From assembly GCA_001724265.1 (NCBI GenBank), contig MEDY01000301.1, positions 1 to 37,986 on the forward strand: a stretch of DNA of 37,986 nt. The letters run 5' to 3'. Under the pieces are notes generated by a model, which was given only the letters and a program-made list of their open reading frames with translations, was not told where the DNA came from and ran no database searches. Shown piece after piece: positions 8,324-36,420 of the stretch (positions are counted from its first letter, which is position 1; every line of letters begins with the position of its first letter). The stretch comes from Rhizaria sp. SCN 62-66 (Eukaryota). A program made the position numbers and the translations under genes.

Positions 8324-11300
8324 ATGGTCCCGATGGATGCCTCCCGCCCATCTTTCCACACGAATTTACACTCGCAGCGCGTGCGCGCCCAACGCGCTGC
8401 CGCTCCCGCCGCGAGTGCTACTATTAACCCCACAGTCACTCTGACTGCGAATCAGGCCGCGCGCGCGCTGCCACTGCTGACGCTCGCGCCCGCGCCGACC
8501 GAGCCGGCCCCCGCGGCGTTTCGCGCACCATCCCTGCGCGATCAGCACCTTGCCCGCCGCGCGCGCGCGCAGCAGGCCGCCGCCGAGGCCACTTCTCCGC
8601 GCTCCGCCGCCGCCCGCGCCGCTGCTGCCGCCGCGGCCGCCGCGGCCGCCGCGAACGAGGCCGCGCTCGCCGCCCTGCGCACGCGCACGCTGGGCGCCGA
8701 GGAGCGCGCGCTGCTGGCCCGGGCTGACGCCGGCTTTGCCCGCGAGGAGGCCGAGCGCGCGCGCTTGCAGCGGGAGAAAGAGCAGGCTGAGGCCGAGGCA
8801 GCTCTCGCGCAGGCCATGTGCGCGCGCTCGCCGCCGCCCGCGATCCCCAGCGGCGGCTCCAACAGCAGCAACAGCAACGGCGCGGGCCCGTTGAGCGCGT
8901 CTTCGTTCCAGCCGCAGCAGGGACCCGCAGTGCCCGCGCTCGCCGCCGTCTCTGCCCTCAACACCGCGAGCGCGAGCTCTAGCTCTAGCTTTCGCTCGAG
9001 AGTGTCGAGCGGTATCGAGCGCGGCGCGCAGCAGCAGCAGGAGGACGCCGAGGCCGAGGCCGAGGCCGAGGCGGAGGCCCTGAAGCACCGCGCGCAGACA
9101 CAGGCGCGCGCGAAGGCAGCGCTCGCGGCGGCCACGGCGGCGGGCGGCGGTGGCCCGACATTCTTCACGATGCAGGAGGACGAAGACGAGGACGAGCGCG
9201 GGAATGAACATGAGCTGCAGCAGCAACAGCAACAGCAGCAGCAGCAAGGGCAGCGCGAGCAGGAGCAGAGTGATCTGGCGAGTGAGAGTGTCGCAGGCAC
9301 TCAGGGGCAAGGGGGCATGTCCGCGACTGGGTTCTCAGCTCACAGTCACTACTCTAACGCGACTGGGCAAGGGGCGGGAGCGAACGAACAGTCTAAGGGG
9401 GGTGACGCGGGTTTAAGCGGCGCTGACCTTGCGGCTAGGTCTCATCCAGCTGTCAGCATCGACTGTGGTGACCCTTGGCTGTGGCTACAACAACAACAGC
9501 AACAGCAACAGCAACAGCAGCAGCCAAGCTCGAGCACTTCTGCCGTCAACCTGGCGAACAGTGCCGGCAGTGCACCGTACGCCATCATCTTGCCCACGGC
9601 CTCCTCCGTCTCCGCTCTTAACAGCACTGCGACGGTGACCACCAACGGGCTCGCCGGCGCTGGCACTGCCGTCGTCGTCGGCGTCAGCACGGCGACGCTG
9701 CCAACCGCGCTCTCGGTTGCGTCACGCGTCGCCGTCAGCGGCACCGTTGTCCCCCTTTCTCAGTCACACTTACATTCGCAGTTTCAGTCGCACGCACAGT
9801 CGCCGTCGAACGCACGCTTTGCGCACGCACAGTCTAGCGGCAGCAGCGGCCGCTCTGACGCTGAGACCGAGGCCGAGGCCTTTGCGTTTGCGCAGACGGC
9901 CGCCGCGCCGCCAATGCCGGTCTCCGCCGCCGCCGTCGTCGCCTGCCGCTCTTTCCTCACGGGCGGCCTAACTTCGGGCCGCGCTGGTCTAAGTGCCGCC
10001 CAGATGCCCACTTACACGTTCAACGGCGTGCCGACGACCGCGGCGTTTGCGGCGACGCACGCAGCTTTGTCGTCGGCCGCCGCCGCTGCCGCCGCCGCGC
10101 TGCGCCGCCGCGGCGGCACAAGTGCGCTATCGGTGCTCACGGTCAGCGAACGCGCTGCGCTGTCGCCGCCGGTCATCTTGCCTCTGCTGCAGCCGCCCGC
10201 AACAGCCGCTGCCGCTGCCAATACGACCGCTGCTCAGCGGCCTGCGTCGGCCGCAGTCAAGGCGAGTTACAGTGCGAGTGGCCCGGGCTCGAGTGTGGTG
10301 TCGGCGCTGCTGCTGGCGCTGTCGCCGTGGCGTGTGTCCGTGGCCGCCGTGCCTGGGGTCCGCGCCGCCAACGAGGACACCGCGTCGGCGCGCGCGCGCG
10401 TGGGCGGCGCCGTGGCCCGCCACGGCGCAGCTCTCCTCGCCCTTTCCAGCAGCGGAGATGCGGGCAGCGCGCAGCTCGCTGGTGCGAGTGCGAGTAAGGC
10501 GGAGACGGCCGCGGCGGCGGCGGCCGTGGCCGGCGCGGGCGCGCGCTGGCTGCGGCAGGCCCGCGTCACCGTGGCCACCGTGGCCGCGGCAGAGGACGCT
10601 AAACTCACCGCTGCGGTTGCGTTGTTGCGTGAGAAGGCCGCCAAGGCCGCCGCCGCCGCTGTGACCGCCGCGGCTGCTGCGACCGCGACGGCGACCGCGG
10701 CCGCGGACATTGAGCAGGGTGACAGAGTCGCTGTGGCCATGATGCGGCGGCTGCTGCAGATGGAGGACAAGGCAGCGCCCTTCCGCGTCCCCATCAACAC
10801 CGGCGTCGCTGCATCTGTGGGCTCTTCTGGTGCTGGCACGAGCGCGGGCGTCAGCTCTGGCTCTGGCTCTGGCTCAGGCTCTGGTGTCTGTGTTGACGCC
10901 GGCTTAAGCGAAGGCGGCGGCGGCGGTGGCGGCGGCGGCGGCGACGGCGATGACGACGACGACAACGTCAGCGGTCACAGTGCACGCGCAAAGGCGTCTG
11001 GTAAAGACTTCTCAGGTCTCAGCAGCAACGCTGCCAGTGCTTGTGCCGAGGGGGAGACTGCTGCTGCCGTTGCCGCTGCTGCAGTAAGCGCGAGCCTGAC
11101 GTCCATCACTGCAGTGTCGGACATGACGACGGAGGCCTTCGACCTCTGGCTCTCGCAAAACACGAGCAACAACTGCAACGTAGCCGCCACTGCCGCCGCC
11201 GCTGCTGTTGTGTCAGCTTCCGTTGACGACGTTGACGACGACGTGAACGCCCACGCCAGCGGCAAGCACTCGAGCGCCACGCCTATCGCGCTGCTGACCC

Positions 11301-14300
11301 GCACGCTGTCCGCCGCGGTCACGTCGGAGGTCGACGCCCTTGCGGCCGCATGGATCAAGACCAACACCACGCGCCTCGCGCTCGCGGCCGCCCACGCGCG
11401 CGCCGCTGCCGTGGCCGCCGCGGGCGCCGCGGGCGCCGCCGCGCTGCTCTCGACGGCGGCCGCGTGCCCGGGCGTGTGGTCATGGTGCGCCAACGCGACC
11501 TTCGCGAGCGTCGACAGCGCCGACGAGTGGGACGTCAACGAGGCGCTGCTCGACGTCGGCGTCAAGCAGCGCCTGCCGCTGCGGTTGCCGCGCAGCCAGA
11601 GCATCGCGGTCCAGGACGGCGACACAGAGGTCGAGACGGCGCCGCAGCAGAGCAGCCAGGGCTTTGCACAGCAGTCGTCGAGCACCCTTGGCTCTAGCTC
11701 TAGCTCTAGCTCGAGCGTCGGTGCAAGTGCGCATTTCACGTCTGCTTTGCCGTCGTACGCGTTCATGCTGACGCCGCAGCGCGCTATCGGGACCGGCTTA
11801 AACTCAGCAGGCGGCTTGACTTCCGCGCCCGGCAGTCCGTCACTGGGGCCCGCGCTGTCCGGAGGGCCGGGCTTGCCCCTGCTGGTGCCATCGCTGTCGC
11901 AACCGTCTTTCAACGCCGGCAGCAACAACAGCAACAACCTCGCGGCTCTCAACGCCGCCATGAGCAGCAGCGTTGATGTGACGATGCTGCCGGACACGAT
12001 GCCCGCGCTATGGCGCATTGGCGGCTTGACTTTCAGCGCCATCTACAGTCTTGCGCTCGTGGCTGGCCTCGCCCCGCCGCCGCCGCAGCCGCGCCGGTTG
12101 CAGCAGGCGCAGTATCAGACGGGCACCGGCAGCCCCGGCCGCGCGTTCGGCCTCAACAACGCCGGCAGCGGAACGTCGGTGCTGTCGCGAAGCGCTAGTA
12201 ACTCCAGCATTGCGAGCAGCAACGCATGCTCTAGTTCTAGCTCTAGCAGCAGCATTAGTAGCAGTTCGCTCGTGTCGGCTTTCACCCGCGACGAGCTCGC
12301 CCTTGCGTCTCTGTCCGCGCCGCTCGTTGCCGCCTTTGTCTACAGCCGCCTCGGCGCCGTCTCTGCGGCCGCGCTCGCGCCCTCCGCGCCGTGGGTGGCC
12401 GCGCTGCGGACCGCGTGCGCGACGGCGGGGCTCGGCCGCAGGTTGCTGGCCGCCGCGGCAGAGGCGGGCGCGCGCGACGCGTGGCTCGGCGTGCGGCTGC
12501 AGTGGCGCAGGGCGCCCTTTATCCCCTTCAATCGCGAAGGCAGCAACAGCAATAGCGACGAGAGCGAGGACCCGGATGAGGGCTCCAGCTCAACTTTTGC
12601 GAAGAACGCGAGCGGTGCTAAGAGTGCAGTGCCGATGTCGATCGCCCCTGCGCCCTTGTCGACAGCGGCTGAGACGCGCTCTGGCGCCGGCGCCGGCGTC
12701 GGAGCCGTGCTGTCTGCAGCCGGGCTGATGGGGCCCAGCGGCTTGACTTTGGGCGACGAGGTGCTCCGTGCCGTCGAGGCCACACAGGGCATGCGCGAGA
12801 TTCGCTACAAGCAGCAGCAGTTGCAACAACAGCAAGAGCTGTTGCAGAAGCAGCAGAAGCAGCAGCCGGAGTCAGAGCGACAGCCTCCTGCAGAGGGGCG
12901 TTTGGAGGGATTTGATCTGACTGGTGCAGAAGAGACGTCGACGAATAATGCCATTAACAGCAGCAACAATAATAACAGCGCTCTAGGGATTGTGTGGCCG
13001 TCGTACACGCAGAGTCTAAGTACTCCCTTAGCCATGCTCGCCAGCGCCGGCCTGCGCCCCGACCCCGTGCTGTTGTCGTCAACCCGCAGCCTCAGCGGCC
13101 CGCTCGCGGCGACGGCAACCGCCGCCGTGGCCGCCGCCGCCGCGCTCGCGGCCTCGGTTGCCGCGGCGTCCGCCGTCGTGCTTGCCGACGCCACCGCCGA
13201 GCGCGTGTGCGCGCGCGCCGCGGCCGCGGTGAAGGCGGCGCAGGCGCAGGCGCGGGTGGCGTATGAGATGCAGCGCGCCGCGTTCGACGTGAACAACACC
13301 GCGTTTCACTCGCTCGGCAGCGGCGACGGGGACTACAACACCGCGATGGTGCTGGTGCCAGAGCACGAGCACGGCAGCCACAGCACGACCAGTGTCAGTA
13401 GCAGCGGCATTTCTCAGGGCTGGGACCCGCTTGGTGCGAACGCCCTCGTCGTCAAGCTCGACAACACACTTTCGCAGCAGCAGCAGCAGCAGCAGGAGCA
13501 GCTGTCCCGGCCGCAGTCCCAACAGTCGCAGTTTCAGCTCCAGCTTCACGCTAGCAGCAACAGCAGCAGCAGTAGCAGCGGCGGCGGCGCAGTCGTCGAC
13601 GCCAGCACCGACTCCGAGGCGCTGCAGTCGCTGCGCACCTCCGTTGCTGCGGCGGCGCGCGCGCTGAGCACCGCGCAGCGCGGTTTCGCGGCGCGCACTC
13701 TTGCGGCCGACGCTGGCGCCGCGCGTGCCGCGGCCGAGGCCCGCGCAGGGGAGCTGGTCGCGGCGCTGGGGGCGCAGGCCGAGCGCGTGCGCGCCGCCGT
13801 GCGCGCCGCGCAGGGGCAGCGCGCGCAGGCGCTTGCCGCGGTCGTCGACGGGAAATGGGGCGAAGTCGTTGCGCTCTGGGGCAAGCAGGTCATTGGTGCC
13901 GGCGCCAATGCCTCAAGTGCAGCGTCGTTATCCTCATCGTCGTCGTCGGCGTTGTCGTCGGTGGTGGTGCCGCTTACGGGCGTTGCCGCGTCGCTGAACC
14001 TTGTCTCGATGTCGACCGCGGCTGCGCCGCCGCCGCCGCCGCTGCTGCTGCGGCTGGTCTGGGCCGCCGCGGGCGCGCTGCTCGGCTGGCGCCAGACTGA
14101 CTGGGCATCCGCGCTCTCCAACATCGCCCTCTACGACCCCGCGCGCACTCGGATCAACGGCGCGAGCGATAACACGAGCTCTAGCGTGTTGTCTGGCTCG
14201 GCGTCGGTTGCGCTGATCGACACCAGCGGCAATGTCACGACTGACCGTGACGTCACCGCTGTCAGCGGCGGCGCGCGCGCTGCGTCGGGCGCGTTGCGCG

Positions 14301-15466
14301 GCTCGCTGCTCGATAAGCTCACATTCGAGCTTGAGACTGAGGCCGCCGCTGCTGCCGCTGCCGAGGCTGAGGCGGAGGCTGCGGCGGAGGCTGAGGCTGC
14401 TGTTACGGCCGAGGTTGAGGCTGAGGCTGAGGCTGAGGCGGCCACATCCGCTGCGGACGCAGCGCGCGCTGCTGGCGACGCTGCGGCCGCGGAGGCTCTC
14501 TTGCACGCCGCCGAGGCCGCCGCCGCGAAGGCTGAGGCAGCCCGCGCGCGCCGCCACAACTCTACAGAGAGACTCACACTCAGCCACAGCCAAAAACACA
14601 GCCGTGTCGGTGCGAGCGGCGCCAACGTTGGCGCAGGCGCCACGAATGGTCGCAGCAGCACTGCGTGCGCGTTTTCACGGTTCCGCACCCCTCTGGCGCG
14701 GCAACTCGCAGCGCTGGATCCTACCACGGTCACTGTCTCCGGCCTAGCCGCTGCGGAGACGCTGCTACGGGAGCCATCGCTGAGTCTGCCGGCCGTGGCT
14801 GCGCTGAGCGAGGCCTCCGCCGCGGTGCTGGCGTGGGCCGTGTCGACGGTCGGCGCAGCGCAGGAGTGGGCGCGCGCGCACGAGCGCTTGCTGCGGGCCG
14901 CGCGCGCGACTGTGGCCGCCGAGCTCGCGCCGTTTGTCGAGGACGCCAACGCCGCGGTCGAGGCGGCCCAGGAGGCCGCGGCGGAGGCGAAGGCCGCCGC
15001 TGCTGAAGCTGCCGCCGCCGCCGCCGCTACCGCCGCTGCGACTGGTGGGAGCGCCAACGCTGGAGCAGTGCCTGCGCTGCTGCCGCCGCTGCGGCCCGCG
15101 TCTGCGTCTGCGGCGGCGAACGCCGGCAGCGTCAGCGGTTTCAGCGGCGTCGGTGGCGGTGCGAAGCCCTTCCAGCGCTTTGTGTCGCTATCTAACAACG
15201 CTAACGTTCCCGCAAGCACGAACGCTAGCCCTGCTTCATTTAGCCAACCGACAGTAGGAAATGATGGCGATTTTGCAGCTACAAACCAGGCGTATGCGAA
15301 CGCTGGCGGTAAGCGGACGCTGGCGCCTATCACCACGACGACGGCAACTGTTGCACCGAATACCATGGGCACTGTGACTCTCGGCGGCGAGCAGGTGAGT
15401 CGTGTCGACTTCTTTGCGGCTGCGGAGGCGAAGTTTAAGGCCCGCTCTAAAAAGCTTCTTGGCTAA
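8324..15466 (+). CDS. Giant low-complexity protein (~2380 aa) with coiled coils and a C-terminal dynein stalk/microtubule-binding-domain-like region
   Basis: 7.1-kb stop-free frame. First ATG is in a GCCATGG context at 8324, and TAA is followed at once by AT-rich DNA. Segment 13820-14890 resembles dynein MTBD helices (see findings). The CDS is firm; the domain call is less so. Confidence 0.85.
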   Translation: MVPMDASRPSFHTNLHSQRVRAQRAAAPAASATINPTVTLTANQAARALPLLTLAPAPTEPAPAAFRAPSLRDQHLARRARAQQAAAEATSPRSAAARAAAAAAAAAAAANEAALAALRTRTLGAEERALLARADAGFAREEAERARLQREKEQAEAEAALAQAMCARSPPPAIPSGGSNSSNSNGAGPLSASSFQPQQGPAVPALAAVSALNTASASSSSSFRSRVSSGIERGAQQQQEDAEAEAEAEAEALKHRAQTQARAKAALAAATAAGGGGPTFFTMQEDEDEDERGNEHELQQQQQQQQQQGQREQEQSDLASESVAGTQGQGGMSATGFSAHSHYSNATGQGAGANEQSKGGDAGLSGADLAARSHPAVSIDCGDPWLWLQQQQQQQQQQQQPSSSTSAVNLANSAGSAPYAIILPTASSVSALNSTATVTTNGLAGAGTAVVVGVSTATLPTALSVASRVAVSGTVVPLSQSHLHSQFQSHAQSPSNARFAHAQSSGSSGRSDAETEAEAFAFAQTAAAPPMPVSAAAVVACRSFLTGGLTSGRAGLSAAQMPTYTFNGVPTTAAFAATHAALSSAAAAAAAALRRRGGTSALSVLTVSERAALSPPVILPLLQPPATAAAAANTTAAQRPASAAVKASYSASGPGSSVVSALLLALSPWRVSVAAVPGVRAANEDTASARARVGGAVARHGAALLALSSSGDAGSAQLAGASASKAETAAAAAAVAGAGARWLRQARVTVATVAAAEDAKLTAAVALLREKAAKAAAAAVTAAAAATATATAAADIEQGDRVAVAMMRRLLQMEDKAAPFRVPINTGVAASVGSSGAGTSAGVSSGSGSGSGSGVCVDAGLSEGGGGGGGGGGDGDDDDDNVSGHSARAKASGKDFSGLSSNAASACAEGETAAAVAAAAVSASLTSITAVSDMTTEAFDLWLSQNTSNNCNVAATAAAAAVVSASVDDVDDDVNAHASGKHSSATPIALLTRTLSAAVTSEVDALAAAWIKTNTTRLALAAAHARAAAVAAAGAAGAAALLSTAAACPGVWSWCANATFASVDSADEWDVNEALLDVGVKQRLPLRLPRSQSIAVQDGDTEVETAPQQSSQGFAQQSSSTLGSSSSSSSSVGASAHFTSALPSYAFMLTPQRAIGTGLNSAGGLTSAPGSPSLGPALSGGPGLPLLVPSLSQPSFNAGSNNSNNLAALNAAMSSSVDVTMLPDTMPALWRIGGLTFSAIYSLALVAGLAPPPPQPRRLQQAQYQTGTGSPGRAFGLNNAGSGTSVLSRSASNSSIASSNACSSSSSSSSISSSSLVSAFTRDELALASLSAPLVAAFVYSRLGAVSAAALAPSAPWVAALRTACATAGLGRRLLAAAAEAGARDAWLGVRLQWRRAPFIPFNREGSNSNSDESEDPDEGSSSTFAKNASGAKSAVPMSIAPAPLSTAAETRSGAGAGVGAVLSAAGLMGPSGLTLGDEVLRAVEATQGMREIRYKQQQLQQQQELLQKQQKQQPESERQPPAEGRLEGFDLTGAEETSTNNAINSSNNNNSALGIVWPSYTQSLSTPLAMLASAGLRPDPVLLSSTRSLSGPLAATATAAVAAAAALAASVAAASAVVLADATAERVCARAAAAVKAAQAQARVAYEMQRAAFDVNNTAFHSLGSGDGDYNTAMVLVPEHEHGSHSTTSVSSSGISQGWDPLGANALVVKLDNTLSQQQQQQQEQLSRPQSQQSQFQLQLHASSNSSSSSSGGGAVVDASTDSEALQSLRTSVAAAARALSTAQRGFAARTLAADAGAARAAAEARAGELVAALGAQAERVRAAVRAAQGQRAQALAAVVDGKWGEVVALWGKQVIGAGANASSAASLSSSSSSALSSVVVPLTGVAASLNLVSMSTAAAPPPPPLLLRLVWAAAGALLGWRQTDWASALSNIALYDPARTRINGASDNTSSSVLSGSASVALIDTSGNVTTDRDVTAVSGGARAASGALRGSLLDKLTFELETEAAAAAAAEAEAEAAAEAEAAVTAEVEAEAEAEAATSAADAARAAGDAAAAEALLHAAEAAAAKAEAARARRHNSTERLTLSHSQKHSRVGASGANVGAGATNGRSSTACAFSRFRTPLARQLAALDPTTVTVSGLAAAETLLREPSLSLPAVAALSEASAAVLAWAVSTVGAAQEWARAHERLLRAARATVAAELAPFVEDANAAVEAAQEAAAEAKAAAAEAAAAAAATAAATGGSANAGAVPALLPPLRPASASAAANAGSVSGFSGVGGGAKPFQRFVSLSNNANVPASTNASPASFSQPTVGNDGDFAATNQAYANAGGKRTLAPITTTTATVAPNTMGTVTLGGEQVSRVDFFAAAEAKFKARSKKLLG

Positions 15467-15610
15467 ACAACTAGTTCTTGGCGTTGCTGATGTGCAATTA
15501 AGAATGTATTCTTGTTCTATATAACTTATAAATACTATTTAGCAATTTTAATTAAATAACAATACATCCGTTATTATTCACAACAAAGAGTATTCGACGT
15601 TACTCGTCGT
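15467..15610. terminator. 144-nt AT-rich spacer between convergent stop codons (shared 3'-end formation region)
   Basis: Abrupt drop in GC between the TAA ending at 15466 (+) and the TAA at 15611-15613 (-). Exact poly(A) sites are not identifiable. Confidence 0.5.
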
Positions 15611-17422
15611 TTACTGTGCACGGCGCTGCTTATCCTTCGCATCAGCAATCCACCTGGTTTGCAGTGCAATTTCCCGATCAAATGCCCGAGCCTTTTCCAT
15701 GCCACCTCCAGTGCGTGCCGCATCTGCTGCCAACGTAAACGACTCAACACTGACTTCCCGCCACTTCAACTCGCACTGCAGCAGCTCAGTCTCCGTTTGC
15801 GATCTCGCCTTAACAGCACCGAAGTCAAGTCGCCAGCTCGCCACATCATCCCAGAGCCCATCCCACTGACCGCCGCACTCCAGTAACTGTGGTTGTGAGA
15901 GTTTTCTCCACGTGAGAGCGCACACGGCGGCCGCGTGCGCCGCGAAGGCCCCCCGGAGTCCGTGCACGTCCACCGTGAGCCACTCGCCCTTGGGCGGCGC
16001 GGGGAGCGCGGTCAGCAGCGCCAGCCCCCGCAGCAGCAGCGCCGCGGCGGGGGCGCCGAGGCGGGCCACGGCGAGCGCCAGGGACGGGTAGAACACGCGG
16101 CCAGGGGCAACCGTAGGGACCGCATCAGTTCCTTGCGCTGTGAACGTGAAGGGCCAAACGGCGTAGCATGAGTCTTGCGAAGACTCAGTCGGGCTAGGAG
16201 AGTCTTCTTCGACCGAGACGCTGTTGTCGCTCTCACCAGCTGTCCCAGCAAGCGTGTCTGCCTCTGCGAGCGTCAGCCGCGCCCGCACTAGTGAGCTATC
16301 GTGGGCGATTCCAAGAGCGTCGCCCGTGCCTAAGCTGTCCACGACGAGATTATACAGAAATGCAGTTTTATCACCGACTTTGCAGGACTTAGGCGAAGTG
16401 AAGAGCGATGAAGAGGTGAAAAGCGAGTCGACAGCATCCAGAATGAGATAGTGCCCGGCGTGCAGGGCACTATCTAACTCATCCACAGGAGCATTTCCGT
16501 CGTTGCAAGAGTTGACGCCGCCTGACAGTGCCGCGTCGGCCATGGCTGCCGCGATGAGCTCGCTGAGGCCAGCGTCGGCATTTGCAGCGGCTGCTAACTT
16601 ATCAGCGGTAGCATCTCCTGACTTTGTAAGCGGATAAGGAATAGGCATGGCTGCGTAAGGGTGGTACTCAAGCCCTCCGATGCTTACACTATGCTTGGTC
16701 ACAGCATTTGCTTGCTTTCTCTTGAGAGAGAACCAGTCAGGGCTCAGACTCGACGCTGCGCTTCCTGACTGAGTGCCGTCGTCTAAGTGCTTCCTGGCGA
16801 GGTACTTAGTCAGCGCGGCGACCCTTACCCGAGGCGCCAACAGCTCCCAGAGCGCCTCGGTGTGGGCCTTGGCCGCAATCTCAGGGGGGGACAACAGCTG
16901 ACTGCGAGCAATCTGCTGCTTCTGTGGCTCCTGCTTGTGATGTTGCGAAGGCACAAGGACAACTCCGAGGCCAGGCAAAGAGACTGAGCCTCGGGGCAGT
17001 GATGACAGCAACAGCGACTGCGACTGTGCACTGGATGGGAAAAACGGCTGTTTGAACACCTTGTAGCAGCGCCAGTCGTGGGTGAGCGCGAGCCTCGTCG
17101 GCCCCAGCGCCGCTGCCAGCGCGGAGTAGGGCGGCGTCGCCACCAGCGCCGCGGCGGCGGCCGGGGACAGCGGCGCCGAGTCAACGCCACTGTCGCTGTT
17201 GCCGTTGCAGTTGCTGTTCTAGGAGGGCGCCATCGGGGCAATAAGGCCGCAGTCCGATAGGTTCGCGTTTTCAGCGACACAGACTGGGCAGATATGCATA
17301 CGCACTAAGTCAGGCGCGCAGCAGCGGGCGCAGCGGCAGCGAAAGCCGTAGGTTTCGCAGAGACGGATCTGGCGCTCGGACCAGGGCGAGAACGTCACGC
17401 CCTTGTAGCGAATACTCACGTC
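15611..17422 (-). CDS. SMYD-like SET protein, exon 2: SET C-terminus and post-SET, in-frame TAG at 17219-17221, then a further 535 codons to TAA
   Basis: DVSIRY...ERQIRL..TYGFRCRCARC is the SET C-terminus plus post-SET. The track ORFs 17219..17419 and 15611..17143 share one frame, separated only by a TAG. The downstream part has WRC and LHAGHYLIL, reminiscent of SMYD C-terminal regions. Confidence 0.7.
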
Positions 17423-17537
17423 CTAAGAGGAGAAACAAAATTGAAAACAAAACATCGAAGGAATAATGAGAAAAAACAACATTTTAGGGAGACGCGGCTT
17501 TCATAATTGCTGATTCAAGTCAAATCGTAGAGCGTAC
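17423..17537 (-). other. Spliceosomal intron, 115 nt, phase 0
   Basis: Minus-strand donor CAG|GTACGC at 17537 and acceptor ttttgtttctcctcttAG|GAC at 17423. The interior is AT-rich. Splicing restores the SET motif AIKEGQ-DVSIRY. Confidence 0.9.
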
Positions 17538-19760
17538 CTGTCCTTCTTTGATCGCGCTGGCCGCCATGACGGCCACTGTAGCCAGTGGGCAGAGGCGCTC
17601 GACAACGCGGCCCAGCGCCACATCCGACCACAATCGCACATTCTGTGCACTGTGCGCGCTGGGAGTGACCGTGGGCACCGTGCGAGTGACCGTGGGCAGG
17701 GTGACTGTGCGCGCGTCGCAGACGGGGGCGCACGAGTGCTCCAGCATCGCGATGCGCGGCATGACGGCGTCGCCGGGCAACGGCAGCAGCCGCCACTGCG
17801 CCTCTTCATTGCCGTCGGTGCCACTGCCACTGCCACTGCCATTGCCACCGCTGTCAGCGTGCTGTTGCAGCTGTTGCTGTGAGGGCGGTGCGATGCGGAG
17901 GCGCAGAGTGTATCCCTGACTGCGCATGTACCGAATTGCTCGCTCACAGTCGCTTGCAAGCTCGGTGCCACGATGGCCCTCCGCATCACTGTCAGATCCA
18001 GAGTCGTTATCTTCGTCCTCATCATCGTCTTCACAGCCGTCATCGCTGTCACGCACACGCGAGCTGTTGCTTGGATCGTTCTTGAGAGCGTTCTTGAGAG
18101 CGTCAGAGATAAAAGGGAATTCCGACGCCACCGTGGACAGGCCCAGCGGCACCGTGTGCCATTGCAACCCTTGCTCACGGTCACTCAACCGCTGCTCACG
18201 GTCACTCAGCCGCTGCTCGCGCTCGCTGAAAGGCGCCCACGCGGCCTGGTAGGGCGCCAGCAGCGCGGTGGCGAGGGGCGCGCTGAGCGTGTTGGTATCG
18301 GCCACGGTGCAGAGCACGGCCAGCGCAGCCGCCAGCGTGACCGGCGCCGACGCCAGCGCAGGTGCTGGGAGGGCGCCGCCAGGCCCACACGTCGGCTGGG
18401 CGGTCGCCGCCAGCGCGGCTGCGAGCGCTTCCGCGGCCCCCGCGGCCGCAGCCGCGGCCGCGGTCGCGGGCAGCGCGCCGACGGCGGTGCGCGCCACCGA
18501 GACGTAGGCGCGGCGCGCGCGCGCGGACTGGGGCGATGGGTCCGCGGCCAGTCGCAGCGCGCTCCACGGGCTCGGCAGCCGCACGGGCTTCACAGCAATC
18601 GCGGTCGCAGTCGTTGTTGTTGTTGTTGTTGTTGTCGCAGACCCAGTCGCTGCCGCAGTTGCCGATGTGTTTGTGACCGCGTCTGTGCATGGACTAGTGG
18701 CATTGGGGGCGCTCGCACAGACTCTATCCGAGTAAGTGGGTTGCGGGTACGGGGGCAGCGTGTAAGGGTGCGGCTTAACAAACATATCCTCGGGACTCGT
18801 GCTCGTGGGGTCGTATTCCGCGCAACTCCAGTCACGCCGCAGCTGCTCTAACGCGCTCGCGCTCACAGTATTGCAACTGGCACCAGTCTCAGGCTCGCCA
18901 GCCGTGCTTTGCGACTTGCTACCCGGCTTGTTGTGGTCCGTCTTGTTGCTCTCCGGCTTGTTGTCAGGCTTGTTGTTGTCAGGCTTGTTGTGCGTCACGA
19001 ACGCGTGCACGTTGGCCGCAAGCAGCGCGCCGCCCATCATGTGCGCGTAACCCGGGTCCACGAGCAGCAGCGCCGCCTGCCGCAGCGCCGCCGCGGCCGC
19101 AGGCAGCACCGGTAGCAGCAGCGGCAGCACGGGCAGACAGGGAGCCAGCGCCCAGAGGGGCGAGACGGCGGCCGAGGGGCGGTACTGAGCGCGCTGCGAC
19201 GCCGACAGCGGCTGCACCGCCGCGCCGCCGCCCACGGTCACCCGGCCGCACTGCTGAGGCTGATACTGCTGCTGGGACTGAGTGTCGTCACAGGGCGCCA
19301 TGAGAGTTGCGGTGAGATAGCGGTGCATGGGGATGTCGACGACGTGGACGCGGCGGCACTGCGGGTGAGGACATAGGAAGCTCAGCAACAGGAAGTTCTG
19401 CGCAAAGGGCGGCTCGCTGCCCAGCGGCGCGTCAGCGCGACGACTGTTACGGCTCTGAGGCGGCCCTTGCTGCTGCTGCTGGCCTTGTTTTGAGGACGTG
19501 GAGGAAGCGGTAGCAGTGGTGCTGGCGTTGTCCAGAGCGGGCGATTTGAGCATGTAGTCGTATTCAGCAAGCTCTGCCGCGGGGATCTCAGCGGCGCAAA
19601 AAAGCGTGTAGAGCTGCGCGAGGTCGGGGGGCATGTCGAGTGGCAGCACCGAGGCGGCGAGCGGCCAGTCGGCGATGACAAGCTCGCCGGGCGCGAGCGC
19701 CGCGGTCGCCACGCCGAAGCGCCCCTTGAGCGCGCTCGAGTGTAGCGCAACGGGCGGCAT
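17538..19760 (-). CDS. SMYD-like SET-domain lysine methyltransferase, exon 1 (741 aa)
   Basis: N-terminal SET half KGRFGVATAALAPGELVIADWP. C-terminal half MPRIAMLEHSCAP...VMAASAIKEGQ. A long insert lies between them, as in split-SET (SMYD-type) proteins. First ATG 19760. Confidence 0.85.
18172..18228 (-). repeat. 21-bp coding tandem repeat, about 2.7 copies (SEREQRL/SDREQRL/SDREQ)
   Basis: tgctcacggtcactcaaccgc / tgctcacggtcactcagccgc / tgctcgcgctcgctg on the + strand. Confidence 0.85.
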
Positions 19761-20763
19761 CACCGGTGTGGGGCAAGCGCGGGCGCGCGGAAGCGGGGCG
19801 GCGGCGAGAGAGCTGAGGACGAGCGCGCAGGGCGATGCAAAGGGGGCGCTGAGGATAAGGCCAGTGATAAGGCGCTGAGAAGGCAGAAACGTAGTGCGTG
19901 TGAGCTAAAACTTCCGTTAAATAACACAGGGTTCGAATATAATATACAAAAATCTTTTAATTACTATTAGTCTTAACCACAGGTGCATGATAGCTACAGA
20001 CTCTGAGATACCCATAAACAATATGACCGCTCCAGTCTGACGCTGGCCTAGGCCCACCGTCCACGGAGTCGCACACCGCGCGTCGTGGAGCTCACTTGTA
20101 GCGGCTATAGAGCGCGTTTGCGTCCGACGAGTCGTTATTGTCCTAGCGGTTAATATTCACCACGTACTTTTCCACATGCTCACAAAACAAATTTTGAGTT
20201 TATGAACACCGGCTGCGTTGTCGCCAGCTTCTTATTGGTCGCTGTGCATTGTTGCTCGCTCGGATATGATAACCCTTGTCTATTCCTCATTTTCCTCTGC
20301 TGCCTCTCGTCTTGTTACGGTAGCGCACGCATAGAACATAATTTTCAAGCATATCTAGCGTATTCTTGCATAATATTCTTGCTCAGTGCTCACTTGCCTT
20401 TCCCCGACGCTCGCCCCACCGCCTCCTCCGCCCCCCTTTCTGCCCGGCCCTCGTTGCAGTCTTTCGCAGAGACTCGACCACCCGACTCTCTTGCCCAGCA
20501 CTTTTTCAGCGCGCTGCGCCTAACACACGCGTCTTTGGAAAACCTTTCCGTCCTTCAAAAGGCGTTATCGCGCTTTTCCTTCGCGCACCCGGCGCTTTCT
20601 CCCTCCCTCTACTCGACCTGGGCGTCGCTAGTTCTTTCCTGTCCTTTTCGCGCCGCAGCTTTGCCGCGCCGTCCCGGTCCCCCGCGTTCCCCCGCCGCCC
20701 GCCCGCCCGCCCGCGCCCCGCGCCCGCCCGCGCGCGCCGAGCCCCGCCGCCCCGCCGCGCGCC
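19761..20763. promoter_or_regulatory. Divergent intergenic region between the SET and PDE genes
   Basis: Head-to-head starts, an AT-rich core near 19910-19990, and pyrimidine-rich leaders on each gene's sense strand. Confidence 0.5.
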
Positions 20764-22155
20764 ATGCCCATCGCCGTGGCCGTGCTAGGATACGCGCTCA
20801 GCTTCGTGCTGGGATATGCCGTGCTCGCGCGTGTGAGCGCCAAGCTCCAGCAGCACCAGGCTCGCCAGCAGCAGCTCGCTCTGCAGCTCGCACAAGAGCA
20901 GCAGCTAGAGCAGCAGCAAGCGCAAGAACAGCAGCAGCAGCAGCAACAGCAGACAACGCGGCGCCGCGGCAAAGGCTCCGCTCGCTCTCCAGCCAGTGCA
21001 CCTGCTGCTGCAACTCAGGCACAGGCTCAGGTACAGCGACAGCTACAGCTGCAGCTGCAGCCGCAGTCGCTGTTTGCCCGCTTGGTGACGCTGCTCGCCG
21101 ACGCGCTCTCTCTGCTGGCGCCGCCGCCGCCGCCGCCGCCCGTGGTCCCAGTCCCTGTCCCAGTCCCTGCCCTTCCGGTCACTGCGCCGGTCACTGCGCC
21201 TGCGGCGGCGGCGACTGCTGGGAGCTCCCAGTTGCAGTCGCCGTCGCAGCCTGAGGCTAACCCCGAGGCTAAGCTCGAGGCTAAGCCCGAGGCTCCGGCT
21301 CCGGCTAACGAGCCTGATGCTAAGTTTGAGCCAGAGCCCGAGTCAAGGCCGGAGCCTGAGTCAAAGGCTGAGCATAATGCGCCCAAGTCTTCAGCAGAGC
21401 CCAAGACTGATGCTGATGCTGAGGCTAAGGCTGACGCTAGGCCTAAGCCCCAACCCCAACCCGAGGCCCATGAGGCTGCTGAGCCCAAGTCATCTGAGAC
21501 TCAGTCGAGCACTGCCCCCTCTGTTGCTGCGATATCTGTTGCCAGCAACAACAGCAACGGCGGCAGCGACACCGGCCTCCCTGTCGCCGCTGACCCTGCC
21601 GCCGCGCCCGCTCCTGCGGCTGCCGATGCGTCCTCCAGCCCGGCTCCGTTTCTCGGCCCGGCCCCGTTTGTCGGCCCGGCCGCGCCCCCCTCAGGTCCCG
21701 GCTCGCTGCCGCTGTCACTGCAGTCCGCCGCCGCCGCCGCGGGGCTCGGCGCGCTCTTGCTGGCCTCCGAGCTGGACCTCTCCTCGGCCTCGGGCTCTGG
21801 CTCCGCGTGCGACTTCGCGGCCGACTCGCCCGTGATCCCCGCTCACGCCGACGCCGACGCCGACACTGCCGCCGACGCCGTTGCCGTTGCGGGTGCCTCC
21901 GTCGCGCTCGCCAACAGCGCTGCGGCCACTGAGACGGTCGCCGTGGCCGCGATCGGCGCCGCAAGCGCCGCCGTAACCACCAGTACGCGTGACGGTGCAC
22001 GTGACGGTACACATGAGGACAAGCCGCTGCAGCTGCACCTCTCGCCGTCACAGTACCAGCAGCATTTGCAGCAACAGCAGCTCGAGCAGCAGAGCAGACC
22101 CGCCGCTCCCAGTCACCAAAGCATTCGCACAGCAAGCGCAAGCACGGTCTCTAGC

Positions 22156-22196
<41 letters not shown>

Positions 22197-23776
22197 TAGT
22201 TCTAGCGCTAGCACCGGCACGGGCAGCGCCCGTGGCAGCTTCAGCGGCAGCGGCGGCAGCGGGCCGCCCAGGACCCCCACCTTCAAGCCCAATGGCAACG
22301 GCAGCGCCGGCTTTGGCAGCAGCACAAACATCAACATCAACTGCACCAGCAGCAGTGCTAGCGCGGTGGCCGCTGGCCCGATGGCTGCGCTGCGCCCGCG
22401 TATGACCCCGGCCTCCACGCCGACAGCGGCCTCGCTCGCCGCTGCGGCGGCCGCGGTGGCGGCGGCGGCGGGCTTCGGCGGCAGCGGCCCCGCCAACACT
22501 TACTGCGGCAGCGGCAACAGCTACAACAACAACGCCGGTCTCAGCAGCAGCGCGCACAGCCGCAGCGGGAGCGCGAGCGCCGCCGTCGGCGGCGCCGGCG
22601 GCGGCGCCGGCGGCATGGCCGTCGGGACTCTGAGCCGCAGCGGCAGCGTCGCCGTTGGAGGCCGCTCCCGCAACGTGGCGCAGATTCTGGACCCGGAGTC
22701 GTACGACAACATCGTCAACAACGTGGGCGCCGCCTGGGCGGACGAGTTGGCGCCGTTCAGGCTCGCCTACGACCCGTCGCCGCCCGCCGCCGCCGCCATC
22801 GCCGTCGCTGGCGCCGCCGCTAATAGCGCGGCCCACCAGCACTTGCAGCACGGCCACGGCCACGGCCACGGCCACGGCGGCGGCGTCAATAGCGACTCGC
22901 CGGGCCAGTCCCACCACAGGGCCAACAGCGGCAGCGGCAGCGCCAGCGGCAGCTTCGGCCCCCACAACAGCTCACACGTCCGCGGCGGCAGCGACGCCAG
23001 TCCTGCCTACGGCTTCGGCTACGGCTACACCTCCGGCAGCGCGGTGCGCGGGCGCGGACGCAGCCACAAGCCGTCTCAGGGCAGCAGCGGCGGCAGCGAC
23101 GCGGGCAGCGTCACCCGCGGTAGCGGCAGCGTGCACGGCAGCGGCAGCGGCAGCGGCGGCGGCGGTGGCGGTCACAGGGCCGGCAGACACGCCGCCGACA
23201 GCGGAAGCCGCGGCCGCAGCAGCACCGCGGCCGCCGAGAGCGTGCGCGCAGCAGCCAGCATGAGCTTCCGCGCGGCAATCACGGCGGCGGCCGCGGCGGC
23301 GACGGCGGCGGCGGCGGGCGCGGTCGCCTTCAGCCATAACCACGCGGGGCTCGGCGCCGGCGGCGGCAGCAGCAGCGCCAACAGGATCGGCCGCGCCTTT
23401 GCGTCCGCGCGCGCCGCCGCCGCCGCCGCGCCGGCCGACGCCGCGGGCATGGGCGCCCCGAACGGGAGCTCGAATGCGCGCGGCAGCAGAAGCACCAGCA
23501 GCAGCGGCAGCGGCAGCGGCAGCGGCGGCAGCGGCAGGACGAGCGCCGGCGTCCGCAACGCATTCGCCGCCAATCGCGCGAACATCAACAACAACAGTAA
23601 CAACGAGTCGTGCATGTTGGACGGCGGCTACTCCAGCCGTTCTTCGAGCCCCATCGACGCGCTGTCGCCGTTCCAGCTGGCGCACACGCCCATCACGGCG
23701 GGGGCTGGGCTAAGTACCGGGCTAAGTACCCCCTTAGCCGGCCCCAGCGCCCGCGCCGCCGCCCGCAGCACCTCTG

Positions 23777-23807
<31 letters not shown>

Positions 23808-26800
23808 CTTTGGCTCTGGCGCGAGCGCGGTCGGCCCCCGCGGCAGCGTCAGCGCCAGCGCCAGCGCCCGCGCCCGCGCCCGCGGCAGCGTCTCCGCGGC
23901 CAACAGCGCTGCCGCACCTCGCAGCGACAGCGAGGCCGCCGCGGCCACACCCGCGGGGCCGGGGCTGGCGCTGGCGCTGGCGCACGTGGAGCGGCAAGTG
24001 CACGGCCCCCCCGGGCTGCGGCTGGGGCTTGGCGCGGCGCCGCTGCGGCCCCGGCTGAGCGGCGGGCTCAAGCGCGGCAAGAGCATTGCCAACAACATGA
24101 ACGGGTACGCAACAGGCACTGCGAACGCCAACGCAAAGACTCACTCGAGTTCTGGCTCCGGCTCTGTGTCGGGCTCTGTGTCGGGCTCCGGCAGCGGGCT
24201 GGAGGCCAGCGACGGTAACGCCAGCGGCGGCGCCGGACTGAACCCGCGGCGCGCGCGCATTCGCCCCGGGGACGCGGCCATCGCCGCCGCGGCCACGGCG
24301 GGCGCGTCCGCCATCGTCGCTGCCGCCGCTGCCTGTGGCGCTGCGACCGCCGCCTGTGACGCCGCCGTCGCCGACGCCGTCGCTCGTGCGAGCGCAGACG
24401 CGACGAGTGGTGGCGCGGACGCCTTAGAGAGTGAAAGCCTCAAGACTAGCGGCACCGCTGCTGTTGACTCCAGGGATCTTGACTCCGCTCAGGATACCGA
24501 GCCTGCCCACGGCCACGCTGCCCACGGCCACCCTGCCCACGGCCACCCGCACCCGCCGATGGTGACCCTCCACGGCGGCGACAGACCGGGCCCTGCCCAC
24601 GGCCACCTGGCCCCGGGCCTCAGCCACAGCGGCGGCCACGCGGCCTACCGGGGGCGCGCGCACGCCCGCGGCGGCTACACTAACGCGCACGCGCACGCGC
24701 ACGCACTCGCACAGGGTCATGGCCGCGGGGCGGGGACTGCGCACTCGTTGTCGTCCTCGCAGTCGCAGTCCCGCTCGCGGTCGCGCTCACGGTCCCGCTC
24801 GCGGTCGCGCTCGCGCGGCCGGGCCACAGACGCGCCGCTCACGACCGACGGGCTTGCTGCGGGCTCGGGCGCCTGGGACAGTCTCGCCAGCCTGGCCCGC
24901 GGCGGCCCCGCGGACGACACGGACGCCGACACCGTTGCCACGAACGCAACCAACCACACGAGTAGCAGCAGCAAAGACGCTGCGGGCGCGTTGCTGTACA
25001 GCCCGCGCAGCGACTCCCTCGCCGGCGCCTTCGGTCCGGGCCCCGTCTCGGTCTCCGGCACTGACAACAGCAACAGCATCAGCAACAGCAACAACAGTAA
25101 CGGCGTCAACAGCATCAACAGCGTTAGTAACAGTAGTGCGAGCACTGCCGGCAGCACCGGGCTCGGCCCGAGCGCTCTCGGCCCGAGCGCTCTCGGCCCC
25201 AGCGCTCTGGGCCGCACCGCAAGCGGCCGCATGGCCGGCACGCTCACCGGCGTCGGCGCTGGCGCTGGCGCGGTGAGTGGAAGGACGCCACGGCACAGCA
25301 TCGCTGGCTCCAGCGACGTTTACGTCGGGCTGGGGGGCCCTCTCCCCGCAGCCCCCGGGCTCCCGGGGCAGCACACCGTCGACGTCAGCCACCTGTTCCG
25401 CGCCAACTCGAGCGACGCGGCCGCCGCGGGCGCCGAGGGCGCCGAGGACGCCGCTGCGACTGGGACGCCCGCGCTGACGCCGACGCCGACGCTGGGGCCA
25501 TATGCGACCCCGCGCCTGTTGCCGCTGGCGCAGGCGCAGGCGCAGGCGCAGGCGCAGGCGCAGGCGCAGGCGCAGGCGCAGGCACAGCAGCTGCTGCAGC
25601 ACCAGCAGCAGATGCACCAGTTCGTGTCGGCCGCCATCCACGGGCCCGCGGGTTCGTATCGCACGGACGGCGCGCTGCTGCAGCGCCAGCAGAAGGGTGC
25701 GCACCTCTTCTACTCTCAGCAGCAGCAACAACAGCAGCAGCAGTCAGCTCCGCAGGCTCCGCTTGCAGCCACGGCCATCACTGGTGTGGTAACCGGCACA
25801 GTCCGCGGCCCGCCGACCGCGACGCCCGCGAGCAGCGTCCGCACCTTCGGCAGCAGCAGCAGCAGCGGCGGCAGCAGCGGCGGCGTCAGCGGCGGCGGCC
25901 TCGCTCACGGGAGCATTCGCACCCCTCCGGCGCAGTCGCCGGACCTCACCGCAGTTTCCGCCGCCAGCAGCGCCGCGACCAATATCAATAACAGCGGCGG
26001 CCACACGAACCCCAAGACGCACGCCGGAGCGAACACAGTCGTCAACTTGGCCAGCAGTAGAGTCTTCAGCGGCTCCAACGGCGACTTGGCGGGCACGTTC
26101 GGCGACGGATACACCGGCGACGGCGACGACGGCGACGACTTCGTGCAGCACCACCCGCTCCTGGCGCACCCGGCTTCGCTGTCCCCCGCCACGGCCTTCC
26201 GCCCGCCGCTGCCCGCGCGCTCGCGGCCGCCCTCGCTGCCCGCCTCCGCCTCAGGCTCTCCGCGGCCCAGCGCGCGCGCTTCCCCGCGCCTCTCCCCGCG
26301 CCTCTCCCCGCGCCTGTCGCCGCGACCGTCGCCGCGGCCGTCGCCGCGGCCCAGCGCGCGCGCGTCGTCTCCGGGCCCGTCGCTGCACTCGCACCACCAG
26401 TCGCCGCATCAGTCGCCCCAGGCCTCGCCCCGCGCCTACGGCGCCCACGGCGCCCACAGCGGAGGCTTCGGGGGCCCCGGGAGCCACGCGGACCACGCGT
26501 CGCCGCGTCTGCGGCTGCGACCGTCGTCGGCGTCGCGCCTGGGGCTGCCGGGCGCGGTCCGCGTCTCGCCCATGCCCGCAAACGCCATCGCCACAGGGAG
26601 TCATGCGCCGCTTTTGCCGAGCACCGCCGTCGAGGCCGCTGCTGGGAACGGCGACGACTCGACTGCTGCTGCTGCTGCTGCTGGGACTGGTGACGCCACC
26701 GCTGCGCCGCCACCGCCACCGCTGCAGTCGCAGTCGCTGGTGCCGCTGACTGAGACCGAGACCGAGGTCGAGGACTCCGCGTTCGCACAGCAGCAGCAGC

Positions 26801-27242
26801 AGCAGCAGCAGCTGGTGCAGCCGCCCAGCTCAGAGTCTCTGCTGGACCAAACCTTCGACGCTGCTGCCGACGGCGGCGGCGATGACGGCCAGGCTCAGCA
26901 GCGGCCGCCGTCGCCGCGGACGGTGCAGCGACGGCAGCTCAAGGGCACCCCGTTCCCCTTTGCCGCCGAGGCCGGCGGGGGCAGCGATCTGACGCAGGCG
27001 CAGGCGCAGGCGCAGACTCGCGCACAGACGCAGGCCTACGCACTGCTGCTGCACAGCCTGCGCATCCGCGGCGCGCTCGCCGCCGCTGCCGCCGCCGCCG
27101 CTGCCGCCGCCGCCGTGGCCGCCGCCGCCGCCGCGCGCAGTGACGCCGGCTACAGCCACGGCCACGGCCAAGGCAGCGGCAGCAGCAGCAGCGGCCGCCG
27201 CCACCGCCACCGCTACGGCACCGACTCCGTCGCCGTCCCAGT

Positions 27243-27298
<56 letters not shown>

Positions 27299-35381: not shown

Positions 35382-35420
<39 letters not shown>

Positions 35421-36300
35421 TAGCTCTGCGGCTGCTTCGAACACTGCCAACGTGGCCAACACTCCCAGCGGGAGCAACGACGCAGCTCCCGCCAGCGACG
35501 GCGGCGGCAGCGCCGCGGTCGCTGCCGCCGCGAAGCCCGCCGCGGCCCCGAGCAGCGGCGGGCTGTGGCGGCAGCTGGTGCAGCCCGCGTGGGACATCAA
35601 CCTTGAGTGCAATCTGCGCTACTGGCAGCGCGAGAAGCGGCTGCTGGAGGAGCGCAAGGCCGCCATCGAGGCGGCGGCGCGCGCGGCCGCGGCCGAGGCC
35701 GAGGCGATTGCGCGCGCGCACGCGTACGCGGACCACGCGGACGATGAGGAGACGGATCTCGACGGCGAAGACGAGGACGAGGACGGCTACGGCAGCAGCC
35801 GCGGGTACGACCACGAGTTCGGCAGCGAGTTTGACGGCGAATTCGACGGAGAGGGCGAGTTTGGCGAGGGCGACGGTGAGGACGAGTTTGACTACAGTGA
35901 CAGCCAAGACGAGGAGGATCGAGGTGAGCTCGATGTCGAGAATGACGAAGAAATCGACAAAGATGACGATAACGATGACGACGAGGCTGCTGCACTGAAC
36001 AAGGATAACGACGACGACGCAGTCCTCACCAAGAACAACGTGCAGCGCAGCGACGGAGCCCTCGACGTCGATGGCGGCGGCGACGGTAGTGAGGCCAGCG
36101 ACGCCAACAGCAGTGCTCATAACGACTACTCAGTGAGCGAAGGCGACGACTTGAAGCACTTCATCAACGCGAACGCGAGCCACAGCAGCCGTCGCCCGAG
36201 TGTGACTGCCGCTGCGACTGCCGCTGCAGCTGCAGCTGCGGCAGCGACCGCCGCCGCGGCTGCGGCCGCTGCCGGCAACAGAGGCCCGGGGGCGAGCTAG
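20764..36300 (+). CDS. Giant class I 3',5'-cyclic nucleotide phosphodiesterase, 5178 aa (5218 aa to the TAA at 36420 if TAG is decoded)
   Basis: YHNQRHAVDV (33598-33627), HDVGHPGTNN (34651-34680, PDEase I signature), ATDL, AADVGHP, EFFAQGDKERELGLP, QLGFI, NLRYW. Hydrophobic N-terminus and acidic tail. 15.5-kb stop-free frame from GCCATG. Confidence 0.93.
25528..25587 (+). repeat. (GCGCAG)10 coding hexanucleotide repeat, poly-(Ala-Gln)
   Basis: Directly visible; the last unit is GCACAG. Confidence 0.9.
27247..27294 (+). repeat. (GGC)16 coding microsatellite, poly-Gly
   Basis: Directly visible perfect run. Confidence 0.9.
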
Positions 36301-36420
36301 TCGGTGGTGATGGTGTACACGCGCAGTCGCAGAAACAGCAGGGCCAACGACAGCCGGAGCAACAGCCGCAACCGGAGTTGCAGTGACAGTGAGAAGGAAA
36401 GAGACGCCATGTCTCAGTAA

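Follow-up and report, generated by a model that had tools for sequence, protein, structure and literature searches.

An in-frame TAG in a rare SET-like gene of Rhizaria sp. SCN 62-66: one ancestral reading frame and a tentative young stop codon

Introduction

Some genes, Drosophila kelch being an example, carry a long conserved second open reading frame (ORF) that is reached by programmed readthrough of a stop codon. At the level of whole nuclear codes, UAG serves as a sense codon and UAA as a stop in the rhizarian exLh (Leu), in Iotanema spirale (Gln) and in phyllopharyngean ciliates (PMC5304391; PMC11687900), and in the established UAG reassignments internal UAG is found in 78–91% of the genes (PMC11687900). 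On the protein side, Toxoplasma gondii AKMT is a MYND-less relative of the SMYD proteins that is fully active only when it dimerises by way of its C-terminal domain and ASI motif (bioRxiv 10.1101/264291). The locus analysed here touches upon all three systems. It is a SET-like gene on the minus strand of a contig of 37,986 nucleotides (nt) from Rhizaria sp. SCN 62-66 (assembly GCA_001724265.1, contig MEDY01000301.1, positions 1–37,986 of the forward strand; this whole stretch is hereafter the window), in which a single in-frame TAG (17219..17221) stands between the end of the SET-like region and 535 further open codons. Like the kelch-type genes, it has one in-frame stop between two long conserved ORFs and a relative with a sense codon at that place; unlike them, its stop is UAG followed by A, and neither a readthrough motif nor a well-placed RNA structure accompanies it.

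The reading that we rank first, narrowly and tentatively, is that this TAG is a young nonsense codon obeyed as a stop, the product having 808 amino acids (aa). The TAG itself is genuine and common to every haplotype sampled, and the frame beyond it belongs, by homology with a continuous relative, to the same ancestral gene; what happens at the codon in the living cell is weighed below against splicing, translation of UAG, gene fission and artefact.

The TAG in the Sampled Haplotypes

According to the original prediction, the minus strand runs ATG GCG CCC TCC TAG AAC AGC AAC TGC AAC GGC with the TAG at 17221–17219, and this is indeed what the sequence contains. Four runs (X1–X4), all in the form of Logan contigs, were aligned to positions 15000–20500. 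X1 is a polyA RNA library; X3 bears no label as to its kind and is probably DNA, because its contigs cover the putative intron 1 of the gene and the intergenic spacers. Record 2 of X1 spans 16963–17270 (308 nt) with one differing letter (17184), and record 19 of X3 spans 17158–17860 (703 nt) with five; in both the TAG is intact and there are no gaps. Since both differ from the window by single-nucleotide polymorphisms (SNPs), these contigs represent assemblies separate from it. X2 and X4 contributed short or dissimilar pieces alone, none of them spanning 17219–17221.

Six further contig records are consistent with this. Wherever the ORF was called on another contig of this organism, the call begins at the first GTG after the TAG: the 510-aa downstream ORF (P0004) is found on five contigs and a variant of it that differs by three residues (P0002) on one. 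The first-GTG start of both implies a stop upstream, as the caller would choose it only then. The TAG is therefore genuine and shared by all the haplotypes sampled, namely those of the window, X1 and X3. It is true that Logan contigs lose rare variants, that X1 and X3 come from one study and that their depths are only 2.7 and 4.9, circumstances under which an artefact of sequencing or assembly, or a rare allele, might pass for the common state; against this, the TAG is retained in all three assemblies, each distinguished from the others by SNPs, and the ORF calls on the six further records fit a stop there, so that an error of this kind, the first doubt to be raised about the prediction, is very unlikely and the whole class of such explanations can be given hardly any weight.

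As a side observation, the three changes that distinguish P0002 from the window (T>P, Y>E, S>A) fall within five codons at 17123–17137 of the minus strand, just after the caller's GTG, the two being identical over the remaining 503 of 510 aligned residues.

A Single Ancestral Reading Frame

The downstream open frame (15614..17218, minus strand) continues the frame of exon 2 for 535 codons up to a terminal TAA (15611..15613), and the guanine-plus-cytosine content (GC) is 0.26 in the 120 nt beyond. Over this 1.6 kb the two other frames of the same strand contain 13 and 27 stops, as compared with none in the 535 codons, and even at the lower of these stop rates the chance of so long an open frame is of the order of e^-13. 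A codon-usage coding score trained on the other genes of the window gives +0.23 per codon in frame vs −0.22 and −0.31 off frame. The stops of the other frames and the codon-usage scores together indicate that the downstream frame is a coding frame and not a chance ORF.

To what gene this frame belonged is shown by a relative. When exon 2, an X and the 535 residues were joined as query and 1.84 billion cluster representatives were searched exhaustively with HMMER, two clusters only were retrieved: one is the ORF of the organism itself, the other is P0003, a JGI metagenome protein of 849 aa having 41% identity to the query. With two clusters among 1.84 billion representatives, the family is extremely rare; likewise, three word-index searches, made with the read-through piece P0001, with P0003 and with residues 1–165 of exon 1, returned the own cluster only among the matches listed. 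P0003 begins at MLEHSCAPVC, corresponding to ...PRIAMLEHSCAPVC in exon 1 of the window, and proceeds unbroken over the position of intron 1, over SIRYKG...LCETYGFRCRCERCVAPDLVRMHPCP (FRCRCERC...APDLVRMHPCP), over the position of the TAG and over a variable linker; past the linker it contains LALGHHWACYQVFKH, LWELHTPRQRV, LHPGHYLFLDA and WRQLSVENFRLAAEA..GGG and extends to the counterparts of the last residues of the window's frame. The 535 codons have their homologous counterpart in the last 650 residues of P0003, the motifs common to both being LALTHDWRCYKVFK, LWELxxPRxRVxAL, LHxGHYLxLDA and WRxxSVExFxLAA...GGG. At the TAG position the window has APS-TAG-N where P0003, the sole relative that can be aligned there, has APS-A-K, that is, an Ala at the protein level within a weakly conserved linker.

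Because P0003 runs continuously from the SET core over the TAG to the same C-terminus, the ancestral gene was a single ORF, and the downstream 1.6 kb is the C-terminal part of this same ancestral gene rather than an independent one. For annotation this means that the 510-aa ORF called on the other contigs represents the C-terminal 40% of a rare SET-like gene and not a gene of its own. The original prediction had argued that the downstream 1.6 kb could not easily be an independent gene, and on this point the continuity of P0003 over the site and the coding character of both flanks bear it out; its one-gene reading is right for the ancestral gene, and the product of 1344 aa that it goes on to propose (the sum 808 + 1 + 535 = 1344 is correct on recomputation) is putative for the present allele.

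Gene fission, i.e., a SET gene that now ends at the TAG followed by a frame that has become a separate gene or cistron, might be read into the fact that prokaryote-style callers report a separate 510-aa ORF starting at a GTG. Such an outcome would leave the second gene with a curious beginning: there is neither a gap nor an AT-rich spacer at the TAG, the surroundings being GC-rich and coding-like, unlike the intergenic DNA of the window, and the first in-frame ATG lies 190 codons downstream (both features as predicted), so that the conserved motifs LALTHDWRCYKVFK and LWELLAPRVRV would precede it. We regard fission as very improbable. The coordinates attributed to two landmarks of the downstream frame, WRC (17066–17074) and LHAGHYLIL (16439–16465), are correct. 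A metagenome locus (L001) was tried as a further homologue and rejected, the match being confined to 45 residues with 38% identity and no other having turned up in it when exon 1, P0001 and P0003 served as tblastn queries.

The SET-like Gene and Its Relatives

The gene, as modelled on the minus strand, starts with an ATG at 19760–19758. Exon 1 (17538..19760) has 741 codons; besides a SET-like segment at the N-terminus and the core motif EHSCAPVC, it holds an insert of low complexity that exceeds 500 aa, and it ends with ...AIKEGQ ahead of the donor GTACGC. A putative phase-0 intron of 115 nt follows (intron 1, 17423..17537; GC ~36%; GTACGC...TCTTAG, acceptor CTCCTCTTAG), proposed from the change of frame between the exons and from a coding score of about −1.0 per codon in all three frames. 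P0003 is continuous over this junction, its AVPAGASLSIRYKG being aligned to AIKEGQ/DVSIRYKG; a splice joint of intron 1 is not among the six joints listed for the runs, X1 having no contig there. Exon 2 up to the TAG (17222..17422; 67 codons, DVSIRYKG...ETYGFRCRCARCCAPDLVRMHICPVCVAENANLSDCGLIAPMAPS, ending ...CGLIAPMAPS) covers the last part of the SET-like region and includes the post-SET motif CxCxxC along with a CPxC pair.

In SET domains an N-terminal GxG-type segment, (N/E)HSCxPx, an acidic-x-x-x-Y strand and a post-SET Cys cluster follow one another in this order, and in the present gene GRFGVATAALAPGELV, MLEHSCAPVC, KEGQDVSIRY and FRCRCARC are candidate counterparts of these. Pfam, searched at E ≤10 and including the profiles SET (PF00856) and zf-MYND, gave no match for exon 1, exon 2, P0001, P0003 or shorter pieces; the SET profile may have failed because the insert of more than 500 aa splits the domain. 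In the ESM Atlas exon 1 adjoins clusters of SET-domain proteins with scores of 0.85–0.87, which can be taken as a lead only. When exon 2 was compared by phmmer with the Protein Data Bank (PDB), all 16 matches at E ≤10 were AKMT or SMYD2, none being significant (the best were AKMT 6fnd with E 0.15 over 32 residues and SMYD2 with E 0.18–0.7), and with a three-row profile 29 of 32 matches at the same threshold were SMYD2, SMYD3 or AKMT, the best, at E 0.08, again being non-significant. The PDB alignments (E 0.08–0.9) fall on the last SET strand and on the post-SET CxCxxC, which reads FRCRCARC in the window and FRCRCERC in P0003 and is aligned with FTCECQEC of SMYD2. An AlphaFold2 model of P0003 made from a five-row alignment consists mostly of helices and is unusable (mean predicted local distance difference test score 33, predicted template-modelling score 0.24).

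With human SMYD2 and SMYD3 (3s7b, 5xxd) the similarity thus consists of AIKEGQ-DVSIRYKG...ETYGFRCRCARC aligned with SMYD2 223–272 (IKPGEEVFTSY...DSYFFTCECQEC), whereas the E-value of 0.08 at best and the lack of any Pfam match and of a MYND domain (neither a zf-MYND profile match nor, by eye, a Cys/His cluster of this kind in the translation of exon 1) set it apart, and it is not classed as SMYD. Like AKMT (6fnd), on the other hand, the gene would encode a SMYD-related protein devoid of MYND finger, with a CPxC pair about 11–12 residues past the post-SET CxCxxC, and the ICPVC of the window is aligned with RCPLC of AKMT, whose C522 and C525 belong to the ASI zinc site. A long C-terminal region is also common to the two, that of AKMT being a TPR-like domain which serves dimerisation and full activity (bioRxiv 10.1101/264291). 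The differences from AKMT are that the similarity is non-significant (E 0.15 with exon 2, E 0.33 with the profile), that of the two CxxC pairs of the ASI site only the first has a counterpart (CPVC in the window, CPEPSC in P0003), that the SET-like region is split by the low-complexity insert, that the C-terminal region, of 535–650 aa, is known from its sequence alone, and that an in-frame TAG divides the two parts. Taken together, these comparisons point to a SET protein that is probably SMYD/AKMT-like, though strongly diverged and MYND-less, and whose C-terminal region is long; it is to be filed in neither family. Of the SMYD-type label that had been proposed at the outset, the post-SET CxCxxC aligned with that of SMYD2 can be retained; given the non-significant PDB matches (best E 0.08–0.15) and the missing Pfam and MYND signatures, the label as a whole amounts to a resemblance.

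The TAG as a Candidate Splice Acceptor

The TAG could be dispensed with if alternative splicing removed it, CCCTCCTAG/AAC acting as 3′ splice site and the C-terminal region being joined to the upstream part. A candidate of this type, mentioned in the original prediction as a scenario adverse to it, is an 87-nt phase-0 intron (17219..17305, minus strand; TTA/GTGCGT ... CCCTCCTAG/AAC). Some features of the site lend themselves to this interpretation: a run of seven pyrimidines ahead of the TAG resembles the acceptor of intron 1 (CTCCTCTTAG/G), exon 1 and the downstream frame are both in phase 0, and frame-preserving GT...AG pairs are available, the in-frame donor candidates in exon 2 being GTGCGT at 17305 (87 nt), GTCTGT at 17284 (66 nt) and GTCGCT at 17278 (60 nt), to which the donor of intron 1 (17537) can be added, whose use with the TAG acceptor would also keep the frame and would skip all of exon 2.

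Every one of these introns, however, would delete residues conserved in P0003, be they VRMHxCP, the Cys pair, GL[IL][AV]P, or the whole SET C-terminus with the post-SET motif. GL[IL][AV]P lies five codons before the TAG, and the stretch from the conserved CGLIAP codons to the TAG contains no GT. The 87 nt encode VRMHICPVC...CGLIAP, the CPVC of which is aligned with AKMT RCPLC, half a zinc site; the expectation that this intron would remove CPVC is thus confirmed, together with the loss of the other conserved residues. Furthermore, the 87 nt score −0.03 per codon in frame vs −0.40 and −0.35 off frame, unlike intron 1, which scores about −1.0 in all frames, and they are judged to be coding. Weaker support comes from record 2 of X1, which is colinear from 17270 to 16963 and shows no joint at 17219, although X1 need not contain spliced transcripts of this gene, and among the six joints listed for the Logan contigs of the four runs none is at 17219 or 17305. 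Finally, only one intron (intron 1 of this gene) was inferred in more than 10,000 codons of the window. Removal of the TAG by splicing is accordingly disfavoured and in our estimate improbable.

Termination or Translation at the TAG

In the sequence of events that we tentatively prefer, a sense codon lying in the poorly conserved linker of the ancestral single ORF, four codons past the conserved GL[IL][AV]P motif, would have become TAG in the lineage of the window. The downstream 1.6 kb would then be a remnant in which decay has not yet begun to show and which would be translated only at the basal readthrough level of the cell. This reading is in keeping with the fact that record 2 of X1 and record 19 of X3 share the TAG with the window, with the start of P0004 and P0002 after it and with the continuity of P0003, as well as with the behaviour of TAG elsewhere in the window and with the context of the codon.

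As to the former, TAG is avoided in coding frames in the manner of a stop: it occurs in frame twice in 10,501 codons (six gene models) vs 4.2 times per 1000 off frame, and internally it is found neither in an ORF of 2,436 codons nor before the end of one of 5,222 codons. At the codon usage of these genes, 67–71% of the single-base routes to a stop yield TAG, and CAG, with 451 codons, is used more than any other of the counted codons that lie one step away. TAG is consequently the expected kind of nonsense change and, for the same reason, the circumstance that both in-frame stops are TAG is uninformative.

As to the context, CARYYA-type sequences are motifs that stimulate readthrough; read directly at the TAG, the next base is A and no CARYYA-type motif follows. 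A 13-bp hairpin with a 3-nt loop (17166..17194, minus strand) was considered as a readthrough structure and rejected: it starts 25 nt after the TAG, which is too distant, and it is within the ordinary range for GC-rich DNA. For the 45-nt windows that surround it, folding energies range from −22.9 to −27.2 kcal/mol, the whole 130 nt have a z-score of −1.57, and about 4–8% of the windows in two other large genes reach −24 to −26 kcal/mol. At 17184, X1 and X3 have a coding-strand T>C change by which GTT (Val) becomes GCT (Ala) and this hairpin gains a G-C pair in place of a G·U pair, a single observation that is probably due to chance.

The divergence between haplotypes is here about 0.1–0.4%, so close that an intact frame is expected even without selection. 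Between X3 and the window, two of 1608 nt differ downstream of the TAG (one change synonymous, one not), as compared with 7 in about 1644 covered nt of exon 1 and with three SNPs and one indel in the intronic and intergenic sequence, which amounts to about 970 nt, counts that are too small to show either constraint or relaxation.

Several observations weigh against obedience to the TAG. The codon is common to at least three haplotypes, and the frame behind it displays no excess of changes, on counts too small for a test. If AKMT can serve as a guide, a product deprived of the C-terminal region may be crippled, because AKMT needs its own for full activity (bioRxiv 10.1101/264291). The same 38 kb also contain a second in-frame TAG. 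It is located at 36298–36300 (plus strand), at the end of a phosphodiesterase gene, and is followed by 39 in-frame codons leading to a TAA at 36418–36420 (36298..36420 in all), which are coding-like in both composition and coding score: GC by codon position is 0.41/0.56/0.79, the other two frames have one and two stops, and a score as high as its +7.1 is attained in 0.3% of 962 intergenic windows and in none of 420 windows of 3′ untranslated region. GC drops to about 0.4 only past the TAA. Two independent young nonsense changes among six genes would be an uncomfortable coincidence. In addition, the terminal stops of the six genes are TAA in four, TGA in one and TAG in one as they stand, and TAA in five and TGA in one when the 39-codon tail is counted, in which case no gene ends cleanly in TAG. 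The second TAG and its tail keep weak or ambiguous termination at UAG in this organism a serious possibility.

The principal alternative, to which we give only slightly less credence, is that UAG is translated at a useful rate and that a 1344-aa protein is made, owing either to programmed readthrough specific to this gene or to weak or ambiguous UAG termination throughout the organism, in-frame TAGs being tolerated and TAA being the reliable stop. To the presence of the TAG in all haplotypes seen and to the second TAG with its tail of third-position GC (GC3) 0.79 ending in TAA, one may add in its favour that the 535 downstream codons are intact, of coding-type usage and no more polymorphic than exon 1 (an underpowered comparison), that with the tail included none of the six genes ends in TAG and five end in TAA despite a GC3 of 0.67–0.90, that the contig of the polyA RNA library is colinear over the TAG, and that in AKMT, the nearest relative with a solved structure, the C-terminal region is important. 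A reassignment of UAG only, with UAA preferred, is moreover documented (PMC5304391; PMC11687900), and the dominance of TAA as terminator, the in-frame TAGs in two genes and the lack of a clean TAG end, if the tail is coding, are likenesses to such codes.

The numbers, on the other hand, are unlike those of an established code: two TAGs in 10,501 codons and in two of six genes stand against the internal UAG of 78–91% of genes (PMC11687900), and internal UAG so far below this level allows at most a nascent or leaky state. Neither a readthrough motif nor a well-placed structure was found at the site and no tRNA gene is present in the window; the lone alignable site pairs the TAG with an Ala in an unconserved linker and is uninformative on decoding; both TAGs are of the kind of stop that mutation is expected to produce; and the second one is known from the letters of the window only. 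For these reasons the reading of the TAG as a young, obeyed nonsense codon is still placed first, by a small margin.

The consequences of the two readings differ. If the TAG is obeyed, the gene would specify a freshly truncated enzyme, a natural experiment on whether members of the AKMT/SMYD-like group can do without the C-terminal region. If it is translated, it would, along with the second TAG, suggest that UAG recoding has reached a low-frequency stage in a eukaryote, a stage that is predicted by the ambiguous-intermediate idea of code change and of which few documented examples are known (no literature search was made for them). In its most extended form, this view would have an uncultured microbial eukaryote, rich in GC and poor in introns and seen in runs labelled as activated sludge, terminate poorly or ambiguously at UAG, tolerate in-frame TAGs, depend on TAA and make a 1344-aa SET-like enzyme, and would amount to an early or low-frequency UAG-only code change outside the ciliates; so full a combination seems to us unlikely.

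The Window and Its Other Genes

The window is eukaryotic in character, with GC-rich single-exon genes on both strands (the GC3 values given above being those of the window genes) separated by AT-rich spacers; it contains no tRNA gene and no Rfam family. An intronless gene at 5583–6653 (plus strand) encodes a PP1-type serine/threonine phosphatase catalytic subunit, with E 5.5e-169 to human PP1-alpha constructs; it is of the ordinary eukaryotic type and, like the Atlas neighbours of the phosphodiesterase domain given below, offers no taxonomic placement. Its protein is extended by about 30 residues at the N-terminus and has a tail rich in Gly, and it is the sole gene of the window to end in TGA. 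Two giant single-exon low-complexity ORFs, in which GC rises up to 0.77, occupy the same strand: the first (8321–15463) has 2,436 codons, about 2,380 of them from the first ATG, and no Pfam family; the second (20764–36297), that of the phosphodiesterase, has 5,222 codons, about 5,180 from the first ATG, and ends in a PDEase_I domain (E 2e-65).

In exon 1 of the SET-like gene a short repeat, REQRLSD (18172–18218, minus strand), is covered at a depth of hundreds to thousands in X1 and X3, with 3-nt indels and many loose ends, presumably because contigs of other organisms or copies of the repeat are aligned there. Among the ESM Atlas neighbours of the phosphodiesterase domain, diatoms are the commonest.

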